Source of the DNA: Paludibacteraceae bacterium
GTDB taxonomy: Bacteria; Bacteroidota; Bacteroidia; Bacteroidales; Paludibacteraceae
Length of the DNA stretch: 64,000 nt
Assembly (NCBI GenBank): GCA_017647145.1
Contig: JAGCLD010000034.1
Span: forward strand, 28,838 to 92,837
Reading direction: 5' to 3'
Shown: positions 10,784 through 64,000 of the stretch, in pieces
How positions within the stretch are numbered: position 1 is the stretch's first letter
Layout of the letters: each line of letters begins with the position of its first letter
Made by a program: the position numbers and the translations under genes
Notes under the pieces: generated by a model
Seen by the model: only the letters and a program-made list of their open reading frames with translations
Databases searched by the model: none
What the model was told of the DNA's origin: nothing

Positions 10784-10830
10784 AAGGCTACACTCGTACG
10801 CTGAGATAGGTATTACATGATAGTAAAATA

Positions 10831-22358: not shown

Positions 22359-22479
22359 GTTTTATCCTGTATAGTTCTTATGTATGTCCTATCTTTATCC
22401 TATCTTTATCCTACGAGTATCCTACGTGTATCCTACGTGTATCCTACGTGTATCCTACGTGTATCCTACGTGTGTGTTA
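22359..22479 (+). repeat. 11-bp-period modular tandem array, locus C
   Basis: In register: TGTATGTCCTA, TCTTTATCCTA x2, CGAGTATCCTA, CGTGTATCCTA x4, CGTGTGTGTTA. Confidence 0.95.
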
Positions 22480-46687: not shown

Positions 46688-46753
46688 AGAATTTATTAAT
46701 TTACTCGTTATTAGGTGATTATACTGTGGATTGACTATTATATCTCTCTTTTG

Positions 46754-46761
46754 CAAAGATA
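46754..46761 (-). promoter_or_regulatory. -7 promoter box (TAtcTTTG on the minus strand) for dnaE
   Basis: CAAAGATA on the plus strand, 67 nt upstream of the refined dnaE start. Confidence 0.5.
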
Positions 46762-46834
46762 GTACAAACCGAAAGCAGAACAAAATAAATTCATTTATTT
46801 TTTATGCTGAGGTGCAGCCTATATTGGCCGTAGG

Positions 46835-47734: not shown

Positions 47735-47757
47735 AAGAATAAATTTTTAAAGATTGT

Positions 47758-48285
47758 TTATTTATTGTCAAATACCAACATGCGAACGGAATACTGTCCA
47801 TTTGTTGTTTTGGGGTTAATCAGGCGCACTACGCGTAGATAATTAGAAGTAATGGCTTCTACATTGAGTTCTACTTGATTGGAGACGACTTCTGTTCCTA
47901 ATTGCAGATTTCTGCCGTAAATGATGACCTTATTCCCATTCCTTCTCCAAGTAAGTTGCTGCCCATTACTTCCGTATAGCCCCGATTCGTAGCATGTATG
48001 ATTGGAATAAAATTGAATCCACTGTTTTCTATAATAGTTCTTTGCCTCATTTGTTGTGGTGGATAGAAACTGACCATTTCTATAATAATGAGTAGAGGTT
48101 TCTCCATAAGTCAACTCCCAACGCCGGGAGCAGAGAAGCTGGTCTGAAGTATAAATATATTCAGAGGAACTTGAACTGCTTGTAGAGGATGATTTAGAAC
48201 CGGAACTTGCAGAGGAAAGAAAGAAGCAACCTGTTTGTCCCATGCACAATAACATAAAGATAAGAATTTTGAATACATTTTTCAT
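47758..48285 (-). CDS. Lipoprotein with a poly-Ser linker (hypothetical)
   Basis: Lipobox GQTGC, followed by SSASSGSKSSSTSSSSSSE. Confidence 0.5.
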   Translation of the reverse strand: MKNVFKILIFMLLCMGQTGCFFLSSASSGSKSSSTSSSSSSEYIYTSDQLLCSRRWELTYGETSTHYYRNGQFLSTTTNEAKNYYRKQWIQFYSNHTCYESGLYGSNGQQLTWRRNGNKVIIYGRNLQLGTEVVSNQVELNVEAITSNYLRVVRLINPKTTNGQYSVRMLVFDNK

Positions 48286-48407
48286 TTTGATCTGTTATTA
48301 AGTTGTTGAACAATTAAAGTGTATAATTTTTTGTTGAGGAAAATAAATGAATGAGGCGAGAGTTTTATACATTTCGTCTGTACATTTTGATAAATAAGGA
48401 AGGTGGA

Positions 48408-48845
48408 TCATTGTTTTCTTGCTGGGGCACCTGCCGTACCTCCTTGAGGCTTGTTGGTGGGTGGCTTTAGATAAGTCTCTTCTGTCCATGTTCCATTTAT
48501 GGCATCTCCCATATATAGCACTAATGTAGAACTTTTAATTGTTACATAGTAATTATTGCTAACTTCACCATGTGATAGGGTTAACATTTTGTTACCGTCG
48601 TACATCCAAATGCCATTTTCATAGCGACCTGATGCGTGCCAATACTTTATATATTGACCGGATTTTTCAAGTGTTAACGTAATGTGAGGTGCAGAACTTT
48701 CTGTTCCGTTGTTGGTCTTGAGTTTGCTTAATTCCCATGCACCAAATAACTGTTGGGTTTTATCCACATTTGTTTGGGATAAGTCGCAGCTTGGCAGCAT
48801 GATTAACACTACCAGTGCACAAAATAATAGTTTTAAGAATTTCAT
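48408..48845 (-). CDS. Lipocalin-like lipoprotein (hypothetical)
   Basis: Start refined to MKFLKLLFCALVVLIMLPSC. Confidence 0.5.
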   Translation of the reverse strand: MKFLKLLFCALVVLIMLPSCDLSQTNVDKTQQLFGAWELSKLKTNNGTESSAPHITLTLEKSGQYIKYWHASGRYENGIWMYDGNKMLTLSHGEVSNNYYVTIKSSTLVLYMGDAINGTWTEETYLKPPTNKPQGGTAGAPARKQ

Positions 48846-48877
48846 AATGTTAATGTTTTTATTTAGTTTGTAAATAA

Positions 48878-49378
48878 TTATCTTATTTTTCTTGCTTCTA
48901 AAGTAGCTTCGACATTTGAACAATATATTTCACTACCATCTGAACATGTTACTTCAACCCATGCATATTTTCCGCTTTCTATAGTAAATTCTTTCATATT
49001 ATATTTTACAGGAATATTGTTCCAAGCACAATACGCTTCATATTGTTTACCCTGTTCTGACCATTCAAAACTATCGTCTGTAAATCCGAGTCGTGGTTCA
49101 CCATACATTTCAAAAAAGTCATCAACAACTCCATCAAAATATGAATTTTCAATATCCCCCTCTAGATATCCATGTAAATTCTCATCCCAAGTGAAAGTAC
49201 CTGTAAACTTCTTTGTCCCAGATACAGATGGATCTGTGTTATTAGTCCCTTTAAAGGAGATTTCAATAGTATATTCCCATTTTCCAGCTAATGATTTTTC
49301 AATTGCTTCTTCGCGTTCACATGAAGTAGCGAATATTGCTAATGCAATAAGAACTAAAGATTTAATAATAGATTTCAT
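48878..49378 (-). CDS. Lipoprotein (hypothetical)
   Basis: Lipobox FATSC. 166 aa. Confidence 0.5.
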   Translation of the reverse strand: MKSIIKSLVLIALAIFATSCEREEAIEKSLAGKWEYTIEISFKGTNNTDPSVSGTKKFTGTFTWDENLHGYLEGDIENSYFDGVVDDFFEMYGEPRLGFTDDSFEWSEQGKQYEAYCAWNNIPVKYNMKEFTIESGKYAWVEVTCSDGSEIYCSNVEATLEARKIR

Positions 49379-49415
49379 AATGTTAATATTTAATTGATTT
49401 ATAATTTGTTGTTAT

Positions 49416-50270
49416 TTATTTTACATCTTGAACAAGGCGGACAAACCCCCTTTTTGAAGTGCTATTGAACATACCACACCCAGCGTAACTCGCATCAAAT
49501 TCGAAGTAATAAGCATATACATGTGGAGAATATTTTCCTTTTAAAGTTGATGACCAATAATATCCCTCCGAGTTTTCATTTACATAACTATACATATTAT
49601 CTTCTGTAACTGGTAAAAAGATTGCACCCGATTCCTCTAACACAAGCCAATTTTCTAATGTTATTATTTGATGCTCTGCATAATCTTCTTCACTATGCCC
49701 AACAGCAACCCCACGTTTGAATGATACATCACTTGGACAAGTCCAATTATCTGGTAATAGGATAAATCCATTCATTCCATCTATTTGTGCCACAGAACAC
49801 AGACTATCTGCATTTTTGCGTCCCTCTTTACCATCTGTTAGATAATTCCATTCTTCATTTGTCAATGTACGCCATGTGTTAGGTTTATCATTACCAATCT
49901 GATTGATTCCCCAATCTACAAAGTTAACAAATGCGGTGTCTGGACTAAAAATATCAGTAGAAACTTTAGTAGGACAATTTCCTGTTCCCCAACAGAACAA
50001 ATCTATCCAACCATCGTATGTGGCGGATAGACTATCTTCTGGCACTTCCTTCATACGCTCTAACTGACTTTCTGCAAAACGCCATTCATTATTTAGAGGA
50101 TGATATTGCAAATTTCCATTTGAGAAAAGAATTTTCTTATGTTTAGAAACACTAAATGCCTTTGTCCTTTTTAAATCTGGATTGTTTAAATCTGGATTGT
50201 TCTGACTATCTGAACAACCCGCAAATACAAACGCCATTAATAGGATGGCTAAATTATAAAACTTTTTCAT
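49416..50270 (-). CDS. Lipoprotein with a FISUMP/DUF1566-like domain
   Basis: Lipobox FAGC. The WRTLTNEEWNYL, GYYWSST and C-terminal RGFVRLVQDV pattern resembles that of 63127..63858. Confidence 0.5.
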   Translation of the reverse strand: MKKFYNLAILLMAFVFAGCSDSQNNPDLNNPDLKRTKAFSVSKHKKILFSNGNLQYHPLNNEWRFAESQLERMKEVPEDSLSATYDGWIDLFCWGTGNCPTKVSTDIFSPDTAFVNFVDWGINQIGNDKPNTWRTLTNEEWNYLTDGKEGRKNADSLCSVAQIDGMNGFILLPDNWTCPSDVSFKRGVAVGHSEEDYAEHQIITLENWLVLEESGAIFLPVTEDNMYSYVNENSEGYYWSSTLKGKYSPHVYAYYFEFDASYAGCGMFNSTSKRGFVRLVQDVK

Positions 50271-50982: not shown

Positions 50983-52269
50983 TTATGCTCCGAAGTTGTC
51001 GTACATAAGGTTTTCCTTTGGAACTCCAAGACTGTCAAGCATGTTTTCTACTGCTTTACTCATCGGACCAGGACCGCACATGTAGTATTCGATGTCTTCA
51101 GGTGCATCGTGGTCTTTTAAGTATGTTTCGTAAATCACATTGTGCACAAAGCCCGGGGTGTATTTCACGCCTGCTGCATCAGCCACAGGGTCTGGTCGGT
51201 CGAGCGCCAAGTGGAATGAGAAGTTAGGGAAATCTTTTTCTATTTGTAAGAAGTCTTCCAAATAGAATACTTCGTTCAAAGCGCGAGCTCCATAGAAGTA
51301 AGACATTTTTCTGTCAGTAGTTTTCAATGTCTTAGTTAAGTGCATGATTTGAGCACGTAAGGGAGCCATACCAGCACCACCACCAATCCACATCATTTCG
51401 TTTTTAGAATCAAAGATAGGGTGGAAGTCGCCATAAGGACCACTCATTGTTACTTTATCGCCCGGTTTGAGGGTGAAGATGTAGGAAGAAGCGATACCCG
51501 GCATTACGTCTTGGAATCCACCGCCTTGTTCTTTTGGTTTGAATGGAGGAGTAGCAATACGCACGGTAAGCATAATACGATCTCCTTCAGCAGGGTAGTT
51601 AGCCATAGAGTATGCACGTATGGTTTCTTCTGTATTTTCGCATTTTAAACCAAAGAGTCCGAAGTTTTGCCAAGCAGGAAGATATTCGTCACCAATGAGT
51701 GATTTGTCAATATCTTTGTCATAGTCCATTTTGTATTTAGGAATCTTGATTTGTGCATATGAACCCGGCACGAAATCCATGTGTTCTCCCGGAGGAAGCG
51801 CCACGATGAATTCTTTGATGAAGGTAGCAACGTTTTTGTTGCTGATTACTTCGCATTCCCATTCTTTAACGCCTAAAACAGATTCGTCAACTTTCAATGA
51901 TAAGTCACCTTTTACTTTTACTTGGCAACCCAAACGCCAGTGGTCTTTTACTTGTTTGCGACTGAAGTGTACCATTTCTGTTGGGAGGATTTCTCCACCT
52001 CCTTCAAGGACTTGGCATTTGCATTGTGCGCATGAACCTTTACCACCGCAAGCTGAAGGCAAGAATACGCCGGCATTAGCCATTGCGCTAAGTAATGAAC
52101 CTCCTGCGCCAACCTCCATTTCTTTCTCTCCATTGAGAAGGACTTTTACGTTGCCGGATGCTACTAAATATTTTTTAGCGACGAGCAGTATGACTACCAA
52201 CAGCAAGATTACCACTAAGAAGACAATCAAGCTGGATAGTATGCTCAATGAATTAATTTCTAATAACAT
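50983..52269 (-). CDS. nqrF: Na+-translocating NADH:quinone oxidoreductase subunit F
   Basis: N-terminal TM helix, 2Fe-2S CGGKGSCAQCKC, FAD block RAYSMAN, and an NADH-binding domain. Confidence 0.95.
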   Translation of the reverse strand: MLLEINSLSILSSLIVFLVVILLLVVILLVAKKYLVASGNVKVLLNGEKEMEVGAGGSLLSAMANAGVFLPSACGGKGSCAQCKCQVLEGGGEILPTEMVHFSRKQVKDHWRLGCQVKVKGDLSLKVDESVLGVKEWECEVISNKNVATFIKEFIVALPPGEHMDFVPGSYAQIKIPKYKMDYDKDIDKSLIGDEYLPAWQNFGLFGLKCENTEETIRAYSMANYPAEGDRIMLTVRIATPPFKPKEQGGGFQDVMPGIASSYIFTLKPGDKVTMSGPYGDFHPIFDSKNEMMWIGGGAGMAPLRAQIMHLTKTLKTTDRKMSYFYGARALNEVFYLEDFLQIEKDFPNFSFHLALDRPDPVADAAGVKYTPGFVHNVIYETYLKDHDAPEDIEYYMCGPGPMSKAVENMLDSLGVPKENLMYDNFGA

Positions 52270-52306
52270 ATTTTTGTGATTTTATGTTTACAGATAGTTT
52301 ATTTTA

Positions 52307-52951
52307 TTAGATTTCTAAGCCTGAGAAGCAGAGGAATGCCATTGCCATGAGGCCAACAACGATAAATGTGATTCCGAGTCCTTTGAGGGGTGCCGGAACA
52401 TCGTTGTATTCCATTTTTTCACGTATAGCAGCAAGTCCTACAATTGCCAGCATCCATCCGATTCCAGAACCGAGTGCGTAAGCCATAACGTCCAGCATAC
52501 TTGTGAGTGCTTTAGGGTCGGTTGGTTCAAGTCCCACGCGTTGTTGCATGAACAATGCTCCACCCATGATTGCGCAGTTTACAGCAATCAATGGCAGGAA
52601 GATACCTAATGAAGCATATAATGATGGAGAGAATTTTTCTACAATCATTTCCACTAATTGTACAATAGCAGCAATCACGGCGATGAAGAGGATGAAACTT
52701 AGATAGCTGAGGTCTAATGTAGCAAAGTCTTCGCTTATCCATTTAAGTGCACCTGCGCTTAATACTTTGGTTTCTAATAAATAGTTGACCGGAAGGGTGA
52801 TCATCAATACAAATGTTACTGCAACCCCTAATCCCAATGATGTTTTAACATTCTTGGATACGGCCAAGTAAGAACACATTCCAAGGAAGAATGCGAAAAT
52901 CATGTTGTCCACAAAGATGGATCGAACAAATAATGTTAATGCGTGTTCCAT
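52307..52951 (-). CDS. nqrE: Na+-NQR subunit E
   Basis: Polytopic membrane protein in nqr order, with a conserved Cys in a TM helix (AVNCAIMGG). Confidence 0.9.
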
Positions 52952-52964
52952 ATATCAATCCTCC

Positions 52965-53588
52965 TTATTTTTCTTGTAAATCTTTATTTAATGAACGATG
53001 AACCCAGATGATGCAGGCCACCAAGATAAGTGCCATAGAAGGCATCATCATTAAACCATTGTTGCTGTATCCGGCTTCGTAGAAGCAGTTAGGAATGACT
53101 TGGAAACCAAATAGTTTTCCACTTCCTAATAATTCGCGGAAGAATGCCACTGCGATTAAAATCCAAGCATAACCAATACCATTACCAATACCATCCAAGA
53201 AAGAATCCCATGGTTTGTTGCTCATAGCAAATGCTTCCAAACGTCCCATGAGGATACAGTTGGTAATAATTAATCCGATGTATACGGATAATTGTACGCT
53301 TACATCATAGGCGAAAGCTTTTAGGACTTCGCTCACAATGGTAACTACAGTCGCAACCACCACTAATTGTACAATGATACGCACACTGTTAGGAATGGTG
53401 TTGCGGAGTAAAGAAATAATTACGTTTGCCAATGCAACGATGATGGTAACGGAAAGTCCCATCACGATAGCCGGCTTTAATTCAACGGTTACCGCCAATG
53501 CAGAACAGATACCTAACACTTGCAGGATAACCGGATTATTCTTGTTCAATGGACCTAATAAAGTCTCTTTGAATTTGTCATTTTTCAT
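52965..53588 (-). CDS. nqrD: Na+-NQR subunit D
   Basis: Polytopic, NqrD/RnfE-like (GICSALAVT, ITNCILMGR). Confidence 0.9.
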   Translation of the reverse strand: MKNDKFKETLLGPLNKNNPVILQVLGICSALAVTVELKPAIVMGLSVTIIVALANVIISLLRNTIPNSVRIIVQLVVVATVVTIVSEVLKAFAYDVSVQLSVYIGLIITNCILMGRLEAFAMSNKPWDSFLDGIGNGIGYAWILIAVAFFRELLGSGKLFGFQVIPNCFYEAGYSNNGLMMMPSMALILVACIIWVHRSLNKDLQEK

Positions 53589-53606
53589 ATTTTTAGTCTC
53601 CTTTTC

Positions 53607-54488
53607 TTATTCTTCGGTAATTACCAATTCTTCAGTGGCTTCTATTGTTGCATTTTCAGCTTCTTGCGCAACTGATTTTACTAAAAATGGTTCGTATGGA
53701 GCGATGCTTGTTTGTAGCATGCTTTCTACACCTTTACTTGTGATGGTGCCACCTGAGATAGCATCAACTTGGTCTTGTCCTTCTGCTGATTGTCCCGCTT
53801 TCATAATGGCAATAGAAGCAAATTTACCATTTTGCATAATGTGTTTTCCAATGAATGGTTTACGGAATGCAGGCATAACAATATTTGCTCCCAAACCCGG
53901 TGTTTCACTTGCGTGTGAGAAGTACACTCCATTGATGGTGTTTCTGTCGTCATCAAGGGCAATGTATCCCCAGATGGCTCCCCAAAGACCTTTTCCGTAT
54001 AAAGGAATGATCCATTTGGTAGTTTGTTCAACTTCAGCCATGTAGATTACATATTCTCCCGCTTGTGGAGCATAGTTGAAGTCACTGACAGGGTCAAGGT
54101 CTTTGATGATTTCACCTGTTTCGTCCAAGATGTAGATGTGCTTGATGTTGTCAGCAAATAGTTGTGCTGCATCAGCTCCTTCTAATACGACAGCAGGAAG
54201 AGAAGAAAGTATTTGTTTCTTCTTGTCAAGTTCGATGTTAGCATTTTGTCTGCTTTTAAGGGCACCTGATGTGATAGATAAGAGCAATGCCACAATTACA
54301 ACAATGATGGTGGTGTAAACCATGATGTAGGCATTTGAATTTTTATTGATGCCTTTTTTCTTTTGTTCGCCACCTTCTATGAGTTCAAACTCAGATGCAG
54401 GTGCTTGGCAAACCGGACATTTCTCCGGAGCAGTAGCTCCTTCATGAATATATCCGCAAACTTTACATTTATATTTATTTGTAGCCAT
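53607..54488 (-). CDS. nqrC: Na+-NQR subunit C with an N-terminal rubredoxin-like CxxC...CxxC extension
   Basis: FMN attachment block ISGGTITSKG. The N-terminal YKCKVCGYIHEGATAPEKCPVCQAPASEF precedes the single TM helix. Confidence 0.85.
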   Translation of the reverse strand: MATNKYKCKVCGYIHEGATAPEKCPVCQAPASEFELIEGGEQKKKGINKNSNAYIMVYTTIIVVIVALLLSITSGALKSRQNANIELDKKKQILSSLPAVVLEGADAAQLFADNIKHIYILDETGEIIKDLDPVSDFNYAPQAGEYVIYMAEVEQTTKWIIPLYGKGLWGAIWGYIALDDDRNTINGVYFSHASETPGLGANIVMPAFRKPFIGKHIMQNGKFASIAIMKAGQSAEGQDQVDAISGGTITSKGVESMLQTSIAPYEPFLVKSVAQEAENATIEATEELVITEE

Positions 54489-54501
54489 AATATTCTTTCT
54501 T

Positions 54502-55704
54502 TTATTTAGTTGCGCGTTTCAGTCTTCGTTTAATGTTGGCTTGTACTACATAGTAGTCAATGAGGCATGCGAAGATATTCATTAATAGGATAGCCAACAT
54601 CATACCTTCCGGATATCCTGGATTCAATACTCTGACCACGACTGCGATTACACCAATCAAGAAGCCATAAATCCATTTTCCTGTTTCAGTACGTGCAGCG
54701 GTTACTGGGTCAGTAGCCATGAATACTGCACCAAATGCAAAACCACCTAATACTAAATGGTTGTACCAAGGCAGGTTAGCAATGGCAGTTTCAGGTCCCC
54801 AGAGGTTGAATGCTAATGCTGTGAGTGCACCTCCGGCAAATACAGAAAGAGTGATTTTCCAACTTGAGATACCAGTGACCATTAATAACATTCCTCCAAG
54901 AAGGATTGCCAATGTACATGTTTCTCCTACAGAACCAGGAATCAGTCCAAGGAATCCGTCTATGAATCCGATGTTATTGCCCAGTATGTCTGTGAATAGT
55001 GGTGTGCTCTCAGTGGCAGTTCCAACTTGTCCGAGTGGGGTAGCACCGGTGAATGTGTCAACTGTAGCATGTCCGTTGCTCCATCCCCATGTTCCTTGAG
55101 TTCTTACCCATACTTGGTCGCCTGACATAGCTGTCGGGTAAGCAAAGAAAAGGAATGCACGTGTGATTAATGCTACATTGAATATATTGTAGCCAGTTCC
55201 TCCAAATACTTCTTTAGCGAAGATTACAGCGAATGCTGTAGCCACTGCAACCATCCATAATGGAGTGTTGATAGGCACGATAAGCGGAATAAGAATACCG
55301 GTTACAAGAAAGCCTTCTGCAATTTCGTGTCCTTTGATTTGTGCTACTGTGAATTCAATTCCAAGCCCTACTACATAAGCTACGACTATGTATGGCAAGA
55401 CAGCCAGTGCTCCGAAGAAGAATGTGCTCCAGAAAGAGGCATCTTGTCCTATTGCAAGGAAGTGTTGATAACCTACGTTGTACATACCGAACAATAAGGC
55501 AGGGATCAAGGCAAGTACTACCATAATCATCGTGCGCTTAGAGTCGATGGCATCATGAATTTGTGTTCCTATGCGTTTGCTTGTGCTGTTAGGAACGAAT
55601 AAGAATGTTTCAAATCCGTCAAATACGGAATGGAACATACTCAATTTTCCGCCTTCTGAGAAGGTGGGCTTGAGCTTATCTACTATGTCTTTTAAAAATT
55701 TCAT
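54502..55704 (-). CDS. nqrB: Na+-NQR subunit B
   Basis: Polytopic, with FMN attachment block TFTGATPLG. Confidence 0.9.
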   Translation of the reverse strand: MKFLKDIVDKLKPTFSEGGKLSMFHSVFDGFETFLFVPNSTSKRIGTQIHDAIDSKRTMIMVVLALIPALLFGMYNVGYQHFLAIGQDASFWSTFFFGALAVLPYIVVAYVVGLGIEFTVAQIKGHEIAEGFLVTGILIPLIVPINTPLWMVAVATAFAVIFAKEVFGGTGYNIFNVALITRAFLFFAYPTAMSGDQVWVRTQGTWGWSNGHATVDTFTGATPLGQVGTATESTPLFTDILGNNIGFIDGFLGLIPGSVGETCTLAILLGGMLLMVTGISSWKITLSVFAGGALTALAFNLWGPETAIANLPWYNHLVLGGFAFGAVFMATDPVTAARTETGKWIYGFLIGVIAVVVRVLNPGYPEGMMLAILLMNIFACLIDYYVVQANIKRRLKRATK

Positions 55705-55724
55705 ATATCGTTCAATATTTGTCG

Positions 55725-57092
55725 TTATTCTAATTCAGATTTCATGTTGTCCAACGCTTTGCGAACTATGGCTTGTAATGGTAGTTTTGATGTGCAAACA
55801 AATTCACAAAGAGCTACATCTTCAGGAGCAATTTCATAAGCACCCAATGCTTCCATCTTGTCTATGTTACCCGCGATCATGGCTTTGATGAGGTATTCTA
55901 CATAGATGTCCATAGGCAATACTTTTTCATATTCACCTGACATAATCATAGCGCGTTGTCCTCCTAATATACGTGCGTCAAAGTTGAATGTCATTTTTGG
56001 GCATACTTTGCGAAGTATTTTTGTTAGAAAGGTGTTGCTGTTGCTGAACTTGTCGAAGCGAGGCATAATCCAACCGAATAACTCATGTGTGTCGGCTCCT
56101 TCTTCCAATACGGTGATTTGATTGGTGTAAGGTGATAAGACTTCGTCTTCGTTGATTTGGTGTCCTGACAAGACATTGCCACATACTAAGCGTAAGGCTA
56201 TTTCTTTGTGAATGTTACCGCGCAGAATGTTGCTAGCTGTGCTACCATATTTTACGCGATAGTATTGTGGTTCGTGCACTTCAGGTCCTGTTAATGCAAC
56301 TACTTTGGTCATATCAACAATGCCTTCGCAGAGGAATTTACCGATAATAAGCATGTCTTGCAGGTTGATGGTCCACACAACTTCGCCTTTGTTGACTGCG
56401 TCTATATGGTGGATTTGCACGCCTACGTTTCCTGCAGGGTGTGCTCCTTCGAATTCGGTGAAGTGTGCATGTTGCAACATTCTGAATTCGGTAGATGTGC
56501 TTCCTGCACGTAATCCTATTTCTACGTCTTTACCGCTGATGATGCTAAATGCTTTTACAGCTGCTTGTAGGTAGTTAGCCTTTCCTTGTGCTACAAACTC
56601 GTAGTTAGGTGCAAGAGGTGCTGTGTCGAATGTGGAAACAAAGACTTTCTTAGGTGCAATAGCCGGATTGGCAATTACGTCATAAGGGCGTTGTTTTACA
56701 CACCACCACAGACCACTCTCTAACAGGGCTTGTTTGAGATTGTCTGCGCTTGCGTTTGCAAGGTTGATTTTTTCAAATGTTTTGTACACTTGTTCTTTGT
56801 CTGCACGGATATCGATGCTGAGCACTTTACGGCGTTCTCCGCGATTGACAGCAATGATTTCCCCGCTTACAGGGGCAACAAATTGCATTTCAGAACATTG
56901 TTTATTGTAAAATACGGGTGAACCTGCTTCTACTCGTTCACCTTCTTTCACCACCACTTTGGGGGTGATGCCCGCAAAATGATCAGGCACTACGGAAAAG
57001 ATTTCGCTCTGAGGATTACTTCCGATGACTTCGGCAGCTTTTCCGTTGATGGCAATGTCTAATCCGCGTTTAAGTTTAATTTTTTGGATCAT
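55725..57092 (-). CDS. nqrA: Na+-NQR subunit A
   Basis: 455-aa soluble subunit at the head of the nqrABCDEF order. Confidence 0.9.
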   Translation of the reverse strand: MIQKIKLKRGLDIAINGKAAEVIGSNPQSEIFSVVPDHFAGITPKVVVKEGERVEAGSPVFYNKQCSEMQFVAPVSGEIIAVNRGERRKVLSIDIRADKEQVYKTFEKINLANASADNLKQALLESGLWWCVKQRPYDVIANPAIAPKKVFVSTFDTAPLAPNYEFVAQGKANYLQAAVKAFSIISGKDVEIGLRAGSTSTEFRMLQHAHFTEFEGAHPAGNVGVQIHHIDAVNKGEVVWTINLQDMLIIGKFLCEGIVDMTKVVALTGPEVHEPQYYRVKYGSTASNILRGNIHKEIALRLVCGNVLSGHQINEDEVLSPYTNQITVLEEGADTHELFGWIMPRFDKFSNSNTFLTKILRKVCPKMTFNFDARILGGQRAMIMSGEYEKVLPMDIYVEYLIKAMIAGNIDKMEALGAYEIAPEDVALCEFVCTSKLPLQAIVRKALDNMKSELE

Positions 57093-57240
57093 AGTGATTA
57101 ATTAATCTTATGCTGAATTCTATTGTTTTTGTGCTTTTCTCGGTGTTAGTTTTTTGCTTTATATTTCGTTTCTTTTTTTTGATGGTAATCCTTATTGTGG
57201 GTTCCTATTGAACGTAATTCTCGCAATAAACTTAACTTTG

Positions 57241-57248
57241 CAAAAGTA
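57241..57248 (-). promoter_or_regulatory. -7 promoter box (TActTTTG on the minus strand) for the nqr operon
   Basis: CAAAAGTA on the plus strand, about 150 nt upstream of the nqrA start. Confidence 0.45.
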
Positions 57249-57327
57249 CATCATTTATTTCTAATAAAGAAATCTATCTTTAATAATTTGTATTTTTTTG
57301 TTATTGCTGTTCGGTGAAAGAGCTATT

Positions 57328-57467
57328 GTGGTATCTTCTTCCTATCTAGTTCCTATCTGTTTTGTATCTTTATCCTACGTGTATCCTACGTGTATCCTAC
57401 GTGTATCCTACGTGTATCCTACGTGTATCCTACGTGTATCCTACGTGTATCCTACGTGTCTGGTAGG
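57328..57467 (+). repeat. 11-bp-period modular tandem array, locus F (longest copy)
   Basis: In register from 57336: TTCTTCCTATC, TAGTTCCTATC, TGTTTTGTATC, TTTATCCTACG, TGTATCCTACG x7, TGTCTGGTAGG. Confidence 0.95.
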
Positions 57468-57677
57468 TAAAAATTTACAAAGTTAGGGAATTTTGGGGAT
57501 AGGATGCTCACGGAGTGAGGTGGAGGCACGGGTGCAGATGTGTTTGTCGGTGCAAAGGGTGTGTGCCTGCGGCAGGGTGTGTCGCGGGGCGAGGTGGAAG
57601 GGTTATGGGTTAAAGGGATTTTTTGTGGTGTATCATGTATTTAGAGAAGATGATTTGTTTTTTTTAAAAATATAAAT

Positions 57678-57685
57678 TATATTTG
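57678..57685 (+). promoter_or_regulatory. -7 promoter box TAtaTTTG at the head of the long leader
   Basis: Exact TAnnTTTG motif preceded by an AT-rich tract. Confidence 0.5.
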
Positions 57686-57690
57686 CAATG

Positions 57691-58029
57691 TGAATCCACG
57701 TCGGGGATATGTCTATTATAAACGGGGTGGGTGAGCGGACATAATGAAAGGCGTTTATTGACGCTCTGTTCTGATGCTCTGAAACTTCGCAACTTTCATA
57801 TTTGTATTCAGGACTTAGCAACGGTAGATGTCCTACGGGATATAGGATTATCCCTCTTGTGCTCATTCGGGTACGCATGTTACGTATATAGATACGTGCA
57901 TGTTTTGTGTGTAAGCATAAGAGAATATTTTATATTCGGCGTGGGCTTCGCGTTGTCGGTCTAATACAAAGGGCAATGCGAAGGCCTAAGAGCATGGAAC
58001 GACAACAGTCGGACTCCACGCTTTTTTTA
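57691..58029 (+). ncRNA. Structured leader or sRNA of about 340 nt ending in a terminator, upstream of the caspase-like operon
   Basis: Several hand-found hairpins: TATGTC/GACATA, GGGATA/TATCCC, and an 11-bp CATG-TACGTAT/ATACGT-GCATG. The 3' composite helix is GGCGTGG...CCACGC plus GTTGTCG/CGACAAC, followed by T7 at 58022-58028, 55 nt before the ATG at 58084. Confidence 0.35.
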
Positions 58030-58083
58030 TGTGTATATGTGAAAACTAATAAGTTATAATCAACCATTAAACAAATTAATCGT

Positions 58084-58755
58084 ATGAAAAAGGTATTATT
58101 CGTGGCGATGGCATTGCTGGTAGCATGCAGCGCAAGTTTTGCACAAGATGCAAAAGAAATTATGAAAGAGCGTCAAGTAACTGCTAAATTAGCTAAAAAA
58201 GAACTTAATGCTAAAGTAGATAAAACAACAAAGAAGGAGGCAAAACGCCTTAAAAGAGAAGGTTGGGTAGTCAGCCCCGGTGCATTGCCATTAGAGAAAC
58301 AGTTGGAGCGTTCGTATTTGATGGAGTTTGAGTATGACGAAAATCTCTTCCCAAAATACATTATGGCAAACGCTCAATCTATCGGCGAGAATTATGATGC
58401 AGCCAAGACTGCAGTAACTTCATTGGCTATTACTAACCTTGCAGGTCAAATTCAAACAGAAGTAACTGCTCTCATTGAAAATACGGTGGCAAACAGACAA
58501 TTAGCAGCAGAAGATGCAGCAAGTATCACAGAGACCGTCATGGCTAGCAAAAACTTAATCAGCCAATCTATCGGCCGGGTGATTACCGTAGTAGAGTGCT
58601 ACCGCATTTTGGATAACAAGAACCGCGAAGTAATGGTCCGCATTGCTTATAATGGCGAAATGGCAAAAGAAGCAGCAAAGAAAGCTGTACGTCAAGAATT
58701 AGAGAAGAAGGGCGATAAATTGCACGAACAATTGGATCAAATACTTGGTCTCTAA
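58084..58755 (+). CDS. Lipoprotein, LPP20-like
   Basis: Lipobox LLVAC, a Lys-rich coiled N-terminal segment, and an alpha/beta domain with an A..A...A..L pattern. The family call is from memory. Confidence 0.5.
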   Translation: MKKVLFVAMALLVACSASFAQDAKEIMKERQVTAKLAKKELNAKVDKTTKKEAKRLKREGWVVSPGALPLEKQLERSYLMEFEYDENLFPKYIMANAQSIGENYDAAKTAVTSLAITNLAGQIQTEVTALIENTVANRQLAAEDAASITETVMASKNLISQSIGRVITVVECYRILDNKNREVMVRIAYNGEMAKEAAKKAVRQELEKKGDKLHEQLDQILGL

Positions 58756-59633
58756 TGAAACGCACTTTGTTGATTATATGTGCATTACTGATATGCTTGG
58801 TGTCGTTTGCCGGCGACATTATGCATATCAGTATTACCTATGACTATATCTCTGATAACCCTAACGAAACACCCGAACAGGCAGAGCAAACGGCCATTCA
58901 AATGGCACAACAAAAGGCATTGGAGGAGCATTTTGGATTGGATGTAGTAGGTATTACGAGTACGATACAACGCAATCGCCAAGAGGGTCGGCAAGTTTCT
59001 TCTACATCGGATGTCTTTTCGTTGCGCGAAACATCGGTACGTGGCGAGTGGATAGAAACAACTTCACAGAAGGTTCTTGAGCAGACCTTTAAAAATGGCT
59101 TCTGGCATGTGAAGGTATATGTTGTAGGACGTGCGCGTAATCATTCTACGGATAAGCCAGCAATACAGTATGCGTTTATCAATAACGCCCATGACAAGCA
59201 AAGTCGGGATCAGTATTATGATGGTGATGACATATTCTTGCGCTTTACTTCACCTGTAAGTGGCGCATTGTGTGTTTATCTTGTTGACGCTGAGCAAAAT
59301 GCTTATTGTTTATTGCCTTATCAATCAAGTATTGTTGGGTATCAATCTATATATGCAAATCATGAATATATTTTCTTCTCCACATCTACTGACCTTAATG
59401 CTGATGAATATACCTTGAATACGAAGCAGAGTAGTGAACAGAATGCGTTGTATGTAGTTTTCTCTCCTAATACTTTTACCAAAGCAATAGACAAACAAGT
59501 AGGTAAGAACTGGCGCGATGAGCAATTGCCTCGCCAATTGACTTATGAGGAATTGATGAAATGGCTCGCAAAAAATCAAACCCGCGATGAAAATATGGTA
59601 GTACGTCGCGAGGTGATAACAATTCGAAAATAA
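58755..59633 (+). CDS. Secreted protein with an LPP20-like N-terminal region and a DUF4384-like C-terminal domain
   Basis: Signal peptide. The start overlaps the upstream stop (TAATG). YYDGDDIFLRFTSPVSGALCVYLVDAEQNAYCLLPY resembles DUF4384. Confidence 0.5.
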   Translation: MKRTLLIICALLICLVSFAGDIMHISITYDYISDNPNETPEQAEQTAIQMAQQKALEEHFGLDVVGITSTIQRNRQEGRQVSSTSDVFSLRETSVRGEWIETTSQKVLEQTFKNGFWHVKVYVVGRARNHSTDKPAIQYAFINNAHDKQSRDQYYDGDDIFLRFTSPVSGALCVYLVDAEQNAYCLLPYQSSIVGYQSIYANHEYIFFSTSTDLNADEYTLNTKQSSEQNALYVVFSPNTFTKAIDKQVGKNWRDEQLPRQLTYEELMKWLAKNQTRDENMVVRREVITIRK

Positions 59634-59669
59634 ATATTGAAAGTCTAATATATTTCTATTGTTAAATAT

Positions 59670-60407
59670 ATGAGTAGATTCATTTTTCTTTTGAGTTTCA
59701 TCTTTGCGACAATAGCGCTCTTGGCGGAAAATGTCACCAATGTTTATGTATGGCAGGAAGGTACAGAGATAATTATTACTTACGACTTGGATAAGGAAGC
59801 AGATATTACATTGTCTTACACAGTACAAGGAAGGACAATGCCAGAGCCTTATTCTGTATATGGTGATGTGGGAACTAATATAGCACCTGGTTCTAAAGAA
59901 ATTGTATGGAAAGTATTGGAAGATTTTGAAAGTTTTGAATACGAGGATGTTGTTTTTTATGTTAATGCTACGAAATCAACAAAACGGAAACTCCGTGAAC
60001 CTAAAAAATATTACATAGACCCATGGGGAGGAGCAGATTTTGGTATTGGAATAGCAGGAGATAAAGCATTTGGAGCTTTTGTTACTGGGTATATACCATT
60101 AGGAGTAAATCGTTTAAGTCTTGTCACAAATCTTCGTTTAACATACCCAGCCCCCAATGCGCCTGAAGCAGATATGTTAATTGCCTGTAATGTTGGACTT
60201 TCTGTAATGTTACGTCCAGGTATATGTGTATCTGTAGCTCCAGGAGTTGGAGTTGCCAAAGAACTTGACCCTTATAATTACGACTACTCATGGGGTGCTT
60301 GTTTCTCAATTGACATGGGTGTCGGACTTCTCATGAATGTGGTTAGTTTAACGATGCATTTGGCTTATCCGATTTTTTTTGGTCTTGGGTTGGGGTTTGG
60401 GATGTAG
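59670..60407 (+). CDS. Secreted protein: a shared N-terminal beta-sandwich-like domain plus a Gly-rich hydrophobic C-terminal tail
   Basis: Signal peptide. The N-terminal domain aligns with that of 63127..63858 (VTNV..QEG..I..YDL.K). The C-terminal 130 aa are G/A/V-rich and end in GLGLGFGM. Confidence 0.55.
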   Translation: MSRFIFLLSFIFATIALLAENVTNVYVWQEGTEIIITYDLDKEADITLSYTVQGRTMPEPYSVYGDVGTNIAPGSKEIVWKVLEDFESFEYEDVVFYVNATKSTKRKLREPKKYYIDPWGGADFGIGIAGDKAFGAFVTGYIPLGVNRLSLVTNLRLTYPAPNAPEADMLIACNVGLSVMLRPGICVSVAPGVGVAKELDPYNYDYSWGACFSIDMGVGLLMNVVSLTMHLAYPIFFGLGLGFGM

Positions 60408-60681
60408 TGTTGTGAGAATGTGTATAAATTATTATGGGTAAAATATATAAAATAAAAAGTGATTATTCCCCCTGTCGTGGTAATTAGATGATATCATAAT
60501 AAGTGTTTTTAACGTTGTTTATTCTTAGCATTGTTATATTTTTATATATGCCAATACTTTTGAGTGAAGAATAATGAAACATAACTTTTGATGCGCATTT
60601 AATCGTGTTCCTTAGTTGGATTGTAATGTAATAGATATAAAAAGGAAAATAAAAGAATGTAATTTATTAATATTAAACGTG

Positions 60682-61446
60682 ATGCCGGAAGAAAAGTTTA
60701 TATGTACAGACAAACTATATCACTATACAACATTTAATAGTGCCCTTAAGATTTTAATAACTCAAACACTTCAATTTAGTTATTTGGCTAATATGAACGA
60801 CATATATGAACAATCAAAACTTTTCTTTTACGCAGAGGATGCTCATCACAATGTAAGCAATTTTTTTGTCAAGGAAATAGCAAAGTATAAACAAATTAGT
60901 TTGACAGAAGATTCTCCACTAGATAATGGTAGAAAAGGTTTTGATATTCCTGCGATGTGGGCACATTATGCAGATAAAGGAAATGGTGTTTGCTTAGTGT
61001 TTGATAAAAAGAAATTGCTACGTCATGTTAGGTCTAATTGGTTAAACGGTCAAGTAAAATACATTAGAGAATTTGATAATAATATAGTTGCCTCGGAGGT
61101 TAAAACTAAACAAGATGTAGTTAATTTTATAAAAAATAAATCTAATGAAATTTTCCTTTGTAAATCTGAAGATTGGGCATACGAGCAAGAATTTCGAATA
61201 GTAGCTAAAACTTCAGTCAGAGCATTAGATGTGTCGGACTGTATAATGTGCGTATTAATCATGGAGAGAACATTTGAAGAATTAGAACAACGTAAAAACA
61301 TTTTTTCAAAAGTAGGCTATAGTGCATATCAATGTTCAAATTTTTTAGGAAACATTTTGATTAAGGATGGAGAAAATCAAATCTATCCTAACCATAATAT
61401 AGAAATTGATTTGTCAGAAACCCCCAATACTAATAATTATGACTAG
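60682..61446 (+). CDS. DUF2971-like cytoplasmic protein
   Basis: Start refined to ATG at 60682. LYHYTTFNSALKILITQTLQFSYLANMNDIYE resembles the DUF2971 N-terminal signature. No signal peptide. Very AT-rich. Confidence 0.55.
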   Translation: MPEEKFICTDKLYHYTTFNSALKILITQTLQFSYLANMNDIYEQSKLFFYAEDAHHNVSNFFVKEIAKYKQISLTEDSPLDNGRKGFDIPAMWAHYADKGNGVCLVFDKKKLLRHVRSNWLNGQVKYIREFDNNIVASEVKTKQDVVNFIKNKSNEIFLCKSEDWAYEQEFRIVAKTSVRALDVSDCIMCVLIMERTFEELEQRKNIFSKVGYSAYQCSNFLGNILIKDGENQIYPNHNIEIDLSETPNTNNYD

Positions 61447-63100
61447 GATTTACCTTATTTTAACTTGTATATTTAATGTGGTTGTTTTATTAGCACAGTC
61501 AAATGCAAGTCAACCGATGAATTTTTATATTGTAAAAGAAATTATCCCTGCTGTTTTGGATGTAATTCCGGGTACTTTAGAATTTGTAGATCAAGACAAC
61601 AACAATGTGATTGATGCCAATGAGACTTGTAAAATTCGTTTTCAAATATCGAATACAGGTCGTGGAGAAGGCTATGGATGCGTGGCACGCACGACTTTCA
61701 CCGGTACTACTCAAGGTGTTTCCATTTCTGATGTTAATCTTCCTATAATTCCTGTGGGTGGTAAACAATGGGTGGAAGTTCCAATTAGAACAAATTCATT
61801 CACTCAAACCGGAGAGATAGCATTGACAATCGTAGTTGATGAACCTAACGGTTTTGGTACAGATCCAATAAAATCTACCATAGGCACACATGAACTAAAA
61901 ACCCCTTACATAAGTATTGTCAGCCACCATTTATCTGGAGTCCAATCAGGAATAGTTGAAAAAAGAAAACCATTTAACTTGCAGATAATTGTGCAAAACA
62001 CAGATCAAGGTTTAGGAGAAGATATAAATGTTAATATTAAATTACCAGAAACGATTAAACGTTATGGTGGTGCAGGAGAAAATATCGTTATTCCAAGTTT
62101 AAAAGCAGGTGAAAGTCGTACTTTTGAATATGAACTTATCGCTAACCAAGAAGCGGCTGAACAAATGAATATACAAATTGCACTATCCGAGAAACATGGT
62201 AGATATGCCAAAAGTGCTGATATTCCACTTAAATTTGGTCAGCACATTGGTGGTAACATAGTGATGAATGTGGAGAGAAATGACCATGAGGTTGAAATTC
62301 AAGAAGTGTCGTTAATCTCCAAGGTTGATAAAGATATACCCGTTACCAATAAGAAGAACTCCAATACTTTTGCTGTAATTATTGCTAATGAAGATTATCA
62401 ATCGGTGGCAGATGTTCCATTTGCACTCAATGATGGTAATATATTCCGTGAGTATTGTTTAAAAACACTGGGCATACCAGAAAAACAGATAAAATATATA
62501 CCTAACGCTACCGGCAATCAAATCAAAGCGCAAGTAGGGTGGCTGAAAACTATTTGTGAAGTGTTTGGAGAAGATGCACAAATCATTTTCTACTATTCCG
62601 GACATGGTATCCCTGACGAAAGAAATAAAACCGCATATTTATTACCTGTAGATGGTATAGGTACTGATGTTACAACAGGATATAAGTTGGATGACCTTTA
62701 TACAGCATTAGGAAATATACCATCTAAGAATGTGACGGTATTTATGGATGCATGTTTCTCCGGAAATACACGTAAAGACGGAAAGGAGATGTTGGTAGCA
62801 GCCAAAGGTGTAGCAATAAAGACACGTAGCGGCATGCCCCAGGGTAACATGGTTGTGTTCTCCGCTGCACAAGGTGATGAGACCGCATATCCAGATTACG
62901 AAGAGAAGCATGGTATGTTTACATATTATCTTCTTAAGAAATTGCAAGAGACTGAGGGATATGTTACTCTACAAGAACTTGGAGAGTTTATCATTGAGAA
63001 TGTTCGTAAAAAGTCAGTGGTCAATGGTAAACTTCAGACTCCATGCGTTACACCATCGGCTTCATTGGATGCTTCATGGAGAGGGTGGAAGTTGAAATAG
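61439..63100 (+). CDS. Secreted caspase-family (peptidase C14) protein with two CARDB/Ig-like N-terminal domains
   Basis: Start refined to MTRIYLILTCIFNVVVLLAQS, with an 8-nt overlap with the upstream gene. Catalytic dyad context YYSGHG and FMDACFSG (DxCxSG). Confidence 0.75.
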   Translation: MTRIYLILTCIFNVVVLLAQSNASQPMNFYIVKEIIPAVLDVIPGTLEFVDQDNNNVIDANETCKIRFQISNTGRGEGYGCVARTTFTGTTQGVSISDVNLPIIPVGGKQWVEVPIRTNSFTQTGEIALTIVVDEPNGFGTDPIKSTIGTHELKTPYISIVSHHLSGVQSGIVEKRKPFNLQIIVQNTDQGLGEDINVNIKLPETIKRYGGAGENIVIPSLKAGESRTFEYELIANQEAAEQMNIQIALSEKHGRYAKSADIPLKFGQHIGGNIVMNVERNDHEVEIQEVSLISKVDKDIPVTNKKNSNTFAVIIANEDYQSVADVPFALNDGNIFREYCLKTLGIPEKQIKYIPNATGNQIKAQVGWLKTICEVFGEDAQIIFYYSGHGIPDERNKTAYLLPVDGIGTDVTTGYKLDDLYTALGNIPSKNVTVFMDACFSGNTRKDGKEMLVAAKGVAIKTRSGMPQGNMVVFSAAQGDETAYPDYEEKHGMFTYYLLKKLQETEGYVTLQELGEFIIENVRKKSVVNGKLQTPCVTPSASLDASWRGWKLK

Positions 63101-63126
63101 ATAAAAAATCATTAATACTTCATTTT

Positions 63127-63858
63127 ATGCGGAAGATATATGTTTTAATTTTGTTGCTTTTCTCAACATTATTTGTGATGGCTCAAGAATATGTCACAAA
63201 TGTTCGTGCATTGCAAGAGGGTCAGAAAATAGTGCTATTGTACGATTTGACTAAAGATACTTATATCCGTCAAGTAAATATGAGGGTGGATGGAACGCAA
63301 AGGTGTATTCCTATGTATAGTCTAAAAGGTGATGTGGATAAACTGATTAGTGCCGGAAAGAATAAGCGTATCGAATATGATGTGTTGTTAGATTATGCAG
63401 GCGGTTTTCGTGCAGAGAATGTAGTTTTTGAAATACAATCTATATTGTCAGACTATGTTGATTTAGGCTTACCGAGTGGTACATTGTGGAAAAACGCCAA
63501 TGAAGGTGGAGATAATGCTCGTTATACTTATGATGAAGCGGTAAGTGAATTTGGTAATAAATTGCCGACTAAGCGACAGTTACAAGAACTTATAAATAAA
63601 TGTACTTGGAAATGGACACAAAATGGGGTAAAGGGATATAAGGTGACGGGACCCAATGGGAATAGCATCTTTTTGCCGGCTGTGGGTTACCGCGATTGCG
63701 AGGTCGGTGTGCGCTACATAGGTACGTACGGCTACTATTTGTCGTCCACTCCTCGCGCTTATGAATCCGCGTGGAGCCTCTACTTCGATTCGAGTGGGGT
63801 CGACATGGACTACGGCGAGCGCTGCGACGGGCTCTCCGTGCGTTTAGTCCAGAATTAA
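63127..63858 (+). CDS. Secreted protein: the shared N-terminal domain plus a FISUMP/DUF1566-like C-terminal domain
   Basis: Start refined to MRKIYVLILLLFSTLFVMAQE. C-terminal LPSGTLW...LPTKRQLQEL...GYYLSST...LSVRLVQN. Confidence 0.6.
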   Translation: MRKIYVLILLLFSTLFVMAQEYVTNVRALQEGQKIVLLYDLTKDTYIRQVNMRVDGTQRCIPMYSLKGDVDKLISAGKNKRIEYDVLLDYAGGFRAENVVFEIQSILSDYVDLGLPSGTLWKNANEGGDNARYTYDEAVSEFGNKLPTKRQLQELINKCTWKWTQNGVKGYKVTGPNGNSIFLPAVGYRDCEVGVRYIGTYGYYLSSTPRAYESAWSLYFDSSGVDMDYGERCDGLSVRLVQN

Positions 63859-64000
63859 TAAAATTTCGCAAGGCGCGTATGCGCTCAGTGAAATTTGTGA
63901 GCATAAATCTTCTCGATTTTGTCCGAGGCTTTGCCGTGACAAAAGCAAGTTGTTTTTTTAGGAGGATAAGTGGTGGGTGTGGGAGGCACGGGTGCGGATG

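Follow-up and report, generated by a model that had tools for sequence, protein, structure and literature searches.

Caspase-like proteases of bacteria have so far been studied as cytoplasmic effectors of death or defence. The closest described relatives of the protease dealt with here are the orthocaspases and metacaspases (MEROPS C14), such as Microcystis MaOC1 and Geobacter GSU0716 (PDB 3BIJ); fusion of the domain DUF4384 to orthocaspases has also been described (PMC7475262). The present study concerns a stretch of 64,000 nucleotides from a Paludibacteraceae bacterium (Bacteroidales; contig JAGCLD010000034.1 of assembly GCA_017647145.1, positions 28,838 to 92,837 of the forward strand), hereafter the window, and in particular a cluster of six co-directional genes, designated g1 to g6, which the open reading frame (ORF) map of the window places at 58084–63858. 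The fifth gene, g5, codes for an exported protease of the C14 family, and the cluster follows a structured leader RNA. Our tentative reading of the operon is that of a conserved cell-envelope caspase-like (orthocaspase) module of Bacteroidales, provided with a promoter–leader–terminator cassette and working by the mechanism proposed below, a reading which we regard as plausible but far from secure. Exported clan-CD proteases are already known, as are orthocaspases and the link of the latter with DUF4384; the conserved envelope module appears to be new, no description of it having been found in our literature searches. Of the two elements, module and leader RNA, the latter is the greater surprise.

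The product of g5 (61439–63100, + strand; 553 aa) had been assigned a signal peptide, two CARDB/Ig-like domains and a caspase fold with an intact catalytic dyad in a first-pass annotation made from the sequence alone. Most of this assignment stood. The protein matches Peptidase_C14 (PF00656) at residues 311–539 with 66.4 bits (cut-off 21.4, E = 4e-18) and CARDB at residues 54–137 with 27.2 bits (cut-off 22.7), whereas the second Ig-like domain is predicted only from the CARDB match at residues 184–252 of the homologue in locus L010 (L numbers designate the other loci examined). The dyad residues His389 (YYSGHG) and Cys439 (FMDACFSG) are invariant in an alignment of 10 homologues reaching down to 28% identity, as are Asp405 (LPVDG) and Asp437; in the same alignment, the residues A-Q-S with which the signal peptide ends are near-invariant. 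The g5 alignment profile matches the C14 structure 3BIJ (E = 0.048), with the dyad motifs aligned to YSGHG and DSCHSG; PDB searches with the single g1, g2 and g5 sequences gave nothing useful. The invariant Asp405 and Asp437 suggest specificity for Arg or Lys at P1, and from what is known of metacaspases we take these residues to form a basic-specific pocket. Because g5 is a genuine C14 protein with its dyad intact and its signal peptide conserved, it is expected to act outside the cytoplasm. In addition, reading of the sequence revealed neither a lipobox nor a C-terminal domain of the type IX secretion system (T9SS), and the signal is not followed by a transmembrane segment; for this reason the periplasm is a more likely location than the cell surface. 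The earlier proposal that proteolysis takes place in the periplasm or at the surface is thus upheld as far as an extracytoplasmic site is concerned, with the surface now the less likely of the two.

With the orthocaspases and metacaspases g5 has in common the p20-like caspase fold of PF00656, the His of SGHG, the Cys of D.C.SG, the Asp405 of LPVDG that suggests cleavage after Arg or Lys, and the association with a DUF4384-like domain. Unlike them, it carries a cleavable signal peptide and N-terminal CARDB/Ig-like domains in place of cytoplasmic signalling domains; moreover, the DUF4384-like domain resides here on a separate protein, and the operon is one of outer-membrane and periplasmic proteins. 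The C14 catalytic domain is 50–60% identical across loci, while the N-terminal module varies, being of the CARDB/Ig, WG_beta_rep or TPR type. A functional analogy, which lies behind our reading, is offered by the exported clan-CD proteases of Bacteroidota, namely the gingipains RgpB and Kgp and PorU (C25), and fragipain and PmC11 (C11), which act on surface proteins, pilins and toxins by maturing or sorting them. This comparison comes from general knowledge, with homology shown only to the level of the clan, and g5 differs from these proteases in being a C14 protein without a T9SS C-terminal domain or a lipobox. Our best guess is that g5 serves in the periplasmic processing of outer-membrane and surface proteins.

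The gene combination to which g5 belongs is conserved. A locus scan performed with one genome per species, using tblastn and ORF clustering, returned 11 loci, mostly from gut metagenome-assembled genomes (MAGs) labelled Paludibacteraceae, with further examples from an Alistipes MAG, from Bacteroidales UBA5833 and from a Lentimicrobiaceae MAG. In these MAGs and in gut metagenome contigs, the genes for g1, g2 and the C14 protease recur together at 25–95% identity, usually in the company of an outer-membrane protein composed of an N-domain and a beta-barrel (the N-domain being shared by g3 and g6, see below) and of Fn3/lectin lipoproteins. The Paludibacteraceae loci that contain all of these genes (L001, L002, L003 and L007) have them in the order g1, g2, N-domain/barrel, large Fn3-lectin lipoprotein(s), C14, and the UBA5833 locus, at 26–28% identity, has a transglutaminase-like gene, g2, C14, N-domain/barrel and three lipoprotein genes.

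The same association was seen among distant relatives of g1 and g2 chosen blind to gene context. A C14 gene is located within a few genes of g2 in L014, L015, L017/18, L019, L095/96, L097 and L098/99, and g2 adjoins or nears a C14 gene also in L010 and L037; the sampled contigs without C14 (L013 and L020) both end close to g1. L014 shows a minimal C14-g2 pair, L095/96 have g1 and g2 with a TPR-C14 protein, L098/99 a sigma-like gene followed by g2, C14 and a barrel gene, and L097 C14 genes on both sides of g2. A nine-gene form (L015, L017/18 and L019) is made up of C14, N-domain/barrel, Fn3 lipoprotein, g1, g2, a transglutaminase-like gene, a gene for a sigma70_r2-like protein of 196 aa, a gene for a protein of 119 aa and a second transglutaminase-like gene. 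The additional genes of this distant form (e.g. L015:11576–15449) are not present in the window. Their two secreted transglutaminase-like products (about 480 aa) have visible motifs of Cys-His-Asp type and weak Pfam matches. The sigma-like protein (192–242 aa) is found in L013, L015, L017, L019, L020 and L098, with matches to Sigma70_r2 that are weak (E = 0.0012–0.013), a protein of L010 reaching 1e-5 for r2 and 1.4e-4 for r4; the 119-aa protein follows it in L015, L017, L019 and L020, and a related pair is found in L010. Upstream of the clusters in L017 (1–4355) and L018 (1–2839) are a HigB toxin/HTH antitoxin pair and an Endonuclease_NS gene, accompanied in L017 by a HerA/DUF87 ATPase gene, a company that resembles a defence island.

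From these arrangements, g1, g2 and C14 form the stable core of the module, and the combination was found to be conserved in all related loci for which the flanking DNA was long enough. As already stated in the first-pass annotation, no function is known to have been assigned to it, and our literature searches found no publication on the subject. The ORF coordinates also confirmed six co-directional, tightly packed genes with overlaps of 1 nt between g1 (58084–58755; 223 aa) and g2 (58755–59633; 292 aa) and of 8 nt between g4 and g5. All the genes are on the + strand, the remaining ones being g3 (59670–60407; 245 aa), g4, which starts at 60616 or 60682 and ends at 61446 (254 aa from 60682, the ATG called in the close relative L012), and g6 (63127–63858; 243 aa), and no terminator-like sites were found on the + strand within the cluster. 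Export signals, which were read directly from the protein sequences, are present in five of the six products, as had been claimed: g1 has a lipobox, g2, g3, g5 and g6 have signals of the signal-peptidase-I type, and g4 has none. It is very improbable, in our estimate, that these are exported proteins brought together by chance in a variable region without forming a functional unit. It is true that g4 is clearly an unrelated insert, that g3 looks as if it were decaying and that gene order and content differ among strains; however, g1, g2 and C14 remain linked from 95% down to 25–30% identity, across several families and even where the gene order has been rearranged, and within the cluster of the window stop codons overlap the next start codon or lie close to it.

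The second main element of the locus is the leader RNA, of about 305 nt (57727–58029, + strand), whose structure is strongly supported by covariation in an alignment of 38 sequences (A8). It is preceded by the box TATATTTG (57678–57685, + strand), which fits TAnnTTTG, the Bacteroidetes-type -7 promoter consensus, and would drive both leader and operon, and it ends in an intrinsic terminator consisting of a bulged hairpin and U7 (57990–58028, + strand; -12.9 kcal/mol), 55 nt before the start codon of g1. The leader had been described as capped by a terminator. It is indeed real and conserved, but it is more than a plain terminator and belongs to a large structured-RNA family common to many operons. 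The TAnnTTTG box is present in 50 of 60 leader copies, with a peak 60–61 nt before an ACATA landmark, against 3 of 60 controls. The leader region shows near-invariant blocks across L001, L002, L003 and L007, with 70–80% nucleotide identity; the g1 identity in these loci, 75–95%, refers to the amino-acid level only. Comparison with Rfam 15 gave no match at E ≤ 10 for 57660–58090 and none at E ≤ 1 for 55000–64000, and literature searches found nothing relevant to this RNA.

An exact pattern of 21 nt taken from the leader was found in 74 metagenome contigs (L021–L094) and had no copies in viral contigs. In most of the 74 loci the homology spans the whole length of about 305 nt and ends in the hairpin and U-run, and in nearly all leader copies a co-directional ORF starts 40–130 nt past the U-run. 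The genes g1 and g2 are downstream of the leader in two loci only, whereas the rest of the downstream genes belong to at least 45 unrelated families. Judging from their N-terminal sequences, many of them encode signal-peptide proteins or lipoproteins, and others a DegT-type aminotransferase, a glycosyltransferase and zinc-ribbon proteins; a crude test detected a signal peptide in 37 of 67 downstream proteins.

RNAalifold analysis of the 38 non-redundant copies in A8 gave 62 pairs in eight helices, 96.2% paired. Changes on both sides of a pair were counted in 206 cells and 21 pairs, compared with 60 ± 7 in shuffled alignments (none of 500 reached the observed value) and 25–55 in slid controls, and the single-sequence fold of the leader has z = -5.6. 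Three short segments are hypervariable and yet always complementary; hypervariable stems are located at A8 columns 59–64/365–369 and 86–92/338–344. Selection acts on the + strand RNA, because G-U often alternates with A-U or G-C, for example at A8 columns 35/43, 100/332, 116/317 and 177/189. In the closing helix, A8 columns 50–58 pair with columns 371–377. The sequence GUGGAAC is at the same time the 3' strand of this helix and the 5' arm of the terminator, with GUUCCAC, just before U7, as the alternative partner. The terminator hairpin and the U-run are kept in all 38 copies, the five outer pairs being near-invariant.

The present leader recalls terminating riboswitches, leader attenuators and processive antitermination RNAs such as EAR, in that it is a conserved, covarying 5' leader with ORFs directly downstream and a strand of its closing helix overlaps a terminator arm. 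It differs from them in that it is outside Rfam, is unusually large, has its own promoter and precedes at least 45 unrelated families with no single pathway. It might be supposed that the leader does not act as a conditional terminator in cis, and is rather an independent small RNA gene or a DNA element, such as an invertible promoter bounded by inverted repeats. The presence of a promoter and a strong terminator of its own, its occurrence in multiple copies (two of them in the window), long-range helices which, seen as DNA, might be taken for inverted repeats, and the typical inverton targets (capsule and surface genes) among the downstream genes would all agree with this. On the other hand, the near-constant co-directional ORF past the U-run speaks against it; the G-U alternation preserves pairing on the + strand and would produce A-C mismatches on the other strand and in DNA repeats; and conserved internal loops interrupt the supposed repeats. 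In addition, wherever a copy has a U-run, as 49 of 79 do, the U-run side faces a co-directional ORF. ORFs were sought on that strand only and the element is split or truncated in five loci, so that an inverted copy may still occur. On balance, we consider an sRNA gene or inverton quite unlikely.

A second, diverged copy of the leader is present in the window at 50588–50320 (- strand; nhmmer, E = 1.4e-9), with its own -7 box, TATCTTTG. The operon behind it (47189–50270, - strand) encodes a DUF1566-like lipoprotein of 284 aa, three small lipoproteins and a beta-barrel protein of 181 aa, so that the leader family is multi-copy in this genome and is placed again before envelope proteins. In other loci, leader copies were sought by a sequence profile (nhmmer). 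Neither nhmmer nor blastn found a leader upstream of the distant clusters L013–L020. As it was not found at the distant C14 clusters, the protease module does not necessarily come with the leader, which is a lineage-specific control cassette, separate from the protease machinery.

The first two genes of the cluster encode proteins for which only tentative names can be given. The lipobox Cys15 of g1 is invariant in a 6-row alignment (A4) and falls outside the invariant or ≥ 90% columns of a 42-row alignment (A5). The g1 family comprises at least 677 clusters, with no Pfam domain in any. Its AlphaFold2 (AF2) model (pLDDT 80) has a long N-terminal helix and an alpha/beta domain, and the best PDB folds retrieved by Foldseek were Helicobacter pylori Lpp20 (5OK8), Tip-alpha and HP1454, with probabilities of 0.9–1.0 and E values of about 0.01; for 5OK8 the values are 0.99–1.0, TM 0.49–0.53 and E = 0.013–0.038. 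In contrast, g1 does not match the LPP20 profile (PF02169) at E ≤ 0.1, and only one of 42 relatives does (E = 0.0097). The LPP20-like label proposed previously therefore appears to hold at the fold level only, by way of a weak match of a predicted model, and fails in profile searches. A search of the PDB with the g1 profile gave one match, which was judged to be due to chance, and a possible homology between g1 and the N-domain of g2 was not borne out, as hhalign paired the signal peptides only.

For g2, the first protein search returned only relatives with at least 84% identity, and the further diversity came from a representative search and from a seed provided by the L013 protein (49% identical). 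The family counts 839 clusters at 50% identity, unannotated, nearly all of about 290 aa and matching end to end. The g2 protein itself scores below threshold against DUF4384 (PF14326; 16 bits, cut-off 27, E = 0.013), but 55 of 70 full-length family members match this domain at E ≤ 0.01 (best, 2.8e-8); hence, the DUF4384-like label lacks a significant match in g2 and is sustained by its family. In the AF2 model (pLDDT 93), the N-terminal domain is a beta-alpha-beta4 fold whose hairpins are long, and the C-terminal one is a beta-sandwich (residues 138–291). Searched against PDB folds, the two-domain model gave nothing at E ≤ 0.001, and the DUF4384 domain resembles generic Ig- or arrestin-like sandwiches. 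The sole specific lead is a periplasmic scaffold of the Campylobacter jejuni flagellar motor (9hmf_A; probability 1.0, TM 0.43), which makes the N-domain of g2 a weak candidate for a FlgP/LPP20-like fold. In terms of known systems, g1 can be compared with H. pylori Lpp20 (HP1456), with which it shares a lipobox and, tentatively, the predicted fold, and with HP1454/HP1457 and Tip-alpha (the folds matched being those of Lpp20, Tip-alpha and HP1454), and the N-domain of g2, through its weak match to the motor scaffold chain, with the FlgP basal disk of Campylobacter. Unlike these systems, the present one has no sequence or profile similarity and no flagellar context, and a ring or scaffold role is a conjecture.

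The occurrence of DUF4384 and of a sigma-like gene in the same family of clusters calls to mind Craspase, the caspase-like protease of type III-E CRISPR systems (Csx29, Csx30, RpoE). Both have a caspase-like protease and a partner with DUF4384 or a DUF4384-like domain, DUF4384 being the C-terminal domain of some of the Csx30 proteins that are Craspase substrates, and a sigma-like factor is present in the distant relatives of our cluster. The differences are that here there is no CRISPR or Cas7-11, the parts are extracytoplasmic, the protease is a C14 and not a TPR-CHAT protein, and there is no sigma gene in the window. An extracytoplasmic analogue of Craspase could be imagined, in which regulated proteolysis by the periplasmic C14 protease of an anti-sigma-type membrane protein, or of the DUF4384 protein, would set free an ECF-like sigma factor. 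The embedding of a sigma-like gene in the clusters of L013, L015, L017, L019, L020 and L098, with the 119-aa protein after it in four of them, fits such a scheme. However, the window, L001, L002, L007 and L012 are without a sigma-like gene and yet keep g1, g2, C14 and the N-domain proteins; the sigma scores are mostly below the Pfam cut-offs; g2 is exported, whereas Csx30 is cytoplasmic; and the sigma factor may merely control transcription of its own cluster. We therefore think it improbable that the system is primarily one of sigma-releasing signalling.

The products of g3 and g6 had been said to share an N-terminal domain of about 85 aa joined to different C-termini, and both halves of this statement proved correct. 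The N-domain, about residues 20–100 of g3, is 37% identical in the two proteins over 105 aa (E = 2e-12), and it is followed by a putative OmpX-like barrel tail in g3 and by a putative lectin-like domain in g6. In related loci, the N-domain heads a conserved family of proteins of about 280 aa, whose C-terminal part, of about 135 aa, weakly resembles OmpX/OMP_b-brl and ends in ...GIGxxF. These barrel matches are weak (OmpX, E = 0.048 with the family profile; OMP_b-brl, E = 0.0028, and Autotransporter, E = 0.0054, in single members). In alignment A9, g3 is a shortened, diverged member of the family and itself ends in ...GFGM; the previous description of its tail as barrel-like thus finds weak support in the family. 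The linker between the N-domain and the barrel of g3, TKSTKRKLREPKK, is rich in Arg/Lys sites. As for g6, its tail matches Lcl_C/DUF1566 below the cut-off (18.6 bits, cut-off 34.9, E = 0.0024) and does not match TIGR02145, but the same type of C-terminal domain recurs, with similarly weak Lcl_C matches, in Fn3 lipoproteins of related loci. Of the FISUMP/DUF1566 label, the TIGR02145 part was thus not supported, while DUF1566-like, in the sense of C-type-lectin-like, seems a reasonable description.

It should be noted that g4 does not behave as a partner in the operon, contrary to what was first supposed. It matches DUF2971 (PF11185) with 51.4 bits (cut-off 22, E = 2.8e-13) and the PADLOC model PDC-S31 (E = 6.8e-19), its GC content is 0.29 (0.29–0.33 in the region around it) compared with about 0.40 in the flanks, and it is absent from all the related loci except the near-identical L012. 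Considering also its lack of an export signal, g4 is a cytoplasmic, strain-specific, low-GC insert outside the conserved module. The site directly before the C14 gene is occupied by different cytoplasmic candidate-defence genes depending on the strain, namely this DUF2971/PDC-S31 gene in the window (60408–61446) and in L012 and a SIR2_2 gene (Dsr1/ThsA-like; 9065–9940) in L001, and the operon may thus contain a hotspot for insertions. L012, with about 95% DNA identity, carries a pair of C14 paralogues (L012:3074–10624) whose catalytic halves are identical and whose N-terminal halves differ. The two copies are about 6 kb apart (the ORFs end at 4735 and start at 9020; repeat units 1969–4734 and 9841–11459), and the DNA between them contains several genes, among them one for a collagen-like/LRR lipoprotein and a full-length one of the N-domain/barrel type; the g3 gene of L012 has lost its barrel through an in-frame deletion. 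The g5–g6 junction of the window is the same as the junction after the second C14 copy of L012, which points to a recombinational deletion between the copies; the window thus derives, by deletion, from a locus with two C14 genes.

Variability of this kind is also what would be expected of a system of conflict, defence or programmed death at the envelope, in which lectin/Fn3 proteins would sense a phage, a predator or a competitor and the caspase-like effector would destroy envelope proteins. The number and size of the lectin/Fn3 genes vary strongly among strains and the protease paralogues recombine; candidate defence genes (PDC-S31/DUF2971 in the window, SIR2_2 in L001) sit within the operon; in L017 and L018 the cluster has HigB/HTH and HerA genes on its flank; g5 matches the generic caspase model of PADLOC (E = 4.8e-12); and in cyanobacteria diversity-generating retroelements target domains of lectin fold that are fused to orthocaspases (PMC7517822). 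Nevertheless, PADLOC gave no match for g1, g2, g3 or g6, and the genes of the cluster were not seen to include an NTPase, a gasdermin, CRISPR or a reverse transcriptase. The score of g5 against the EACC1-associated caspase family (NF047832) is 60.8 bits, well below the cut-off of 140, and no EACC1 partner is present in the cluster. Moreover, the leader RNA also heads ordinary surface-protein and polysaccharide genes, and the cluster is widespread and syntenic, which is closer to a housekeeping function of the envelope. A role in defence is therefore, in our opinion, unlikely.

Returning to the envelope module, its working may be pictured as follows. Some factor would stabilize the fold of the leader, so that the terminator arm is sequestered and transcription reads through; otherwise, it would stop at 58028. 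The g1 lipoprotein would be anchored in the outer membrane, facing the periplasm, as it is without an acidic surface-export signal after the Cys. Acidic residues in this position are the surface-export signal of Bacteroidetes lipoproteins, and the neighbouring Fn3-lectin lipoproteins do read C-E-K-D-D-E or C-E-R-D-N-E after the lipobox Cys. Together with the FlgP/LPP20-like N-domain of g2, g1 could form a scaffold tethered to the outer membrane, and the two proteins would tether and regulate the protease at its inner face. The DUF4384 domain of g2 would be a non-catalytic partner of the protease in trans, the same domain being fused to protease domains in other phyla. Clients of the g3 type (barrel) and of the lectin type (g6 and the Fn3-lectin lipoprotein) would be docked at the protease by the shared N-domain of about 85 aa, and g5, cleaving after Arg or Lys in the periplasm, would process, release or turn over these outer-membrane and surface proteins. 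The g4 gene would be an unrelated insertion.

Several observations weigh against this model. Covariation is not seen in the terminator stem, its conservation being too high, and the single-sequence minimum-energy fold forms the terminator and not the closing helix. The g3 gene looks dispensable or decaying, being shortened in the window and deprived of its barrel in L012, and g6 has no basic linker. The calls of LPP20-like and FlgP-like domains are weak fold matches (E about 0.003–0.01, TM 0.43–0.53) with no profile support. Finally, the sigma-like factor and the two transglutaminase-like proteins of the distant form are not explained by the model.

A more far-reaching proposal, which we put forward as possible but rather doubtful, is that the leader represents a new class of regulatory RNA, either a riboswitch or a factor-dependent antiterminator with its own promoter, which would coordinate a large surface and envelope regulon in gut Bacteroidales. 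This regulon would include a periplasmic caspase system not recognised before, in which the DUF4384 partner and the docking domain would steer the C14 protease to proteins of the outer membrane and of the surface, with signalling, shedding or the destruction of the cell's own envelope as the outcome.

As regards the genomic surroundings, the cluster is chromosomal, with no obvious mobile element around it. An nqrA-F-like operon (50983–57092, - strand) diverges from the leader promoter, nqrA-F being the genes of the Na+-translocating NADH:quinone reductase, and a dnaE-like gene (DNA polymerase III alpha; 42803–46783, - strand) is located farther along; both labels come from reading the translations. 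Between the promoters of nqrA and of the leader there is a perfect tandem repeat of 11 nt, TATCCTACGTG, present eight times at 57371–57459 and five times at a second site (22418–22472), and absent from all the loci fetched. In addition, a 19-mer, GGAGGCACGGGTGC(A/G)GATG, is found on both flanks of the cluster (57522–57540 and 63982–64000) within G-rich stretches; its second copy is cut off by the edge of the window (64000), a point at which L012 diverges.

A conserved, exported C14 protease with dedicated outer-membrane partners, if confirmed, would extend the family of bacterial caspase-like proteases to envelope biology in a dominant gut phylum, and for DUF4384, a domain repeatedly found with proteases, it would suggest a role, open to testing, as partner of a protease. 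The leader RNA, located as it is before dozens of unrelated genes that mostly encode exported proteins, points to a shared control signal for the expression of surface proteins in Bacteroidales.

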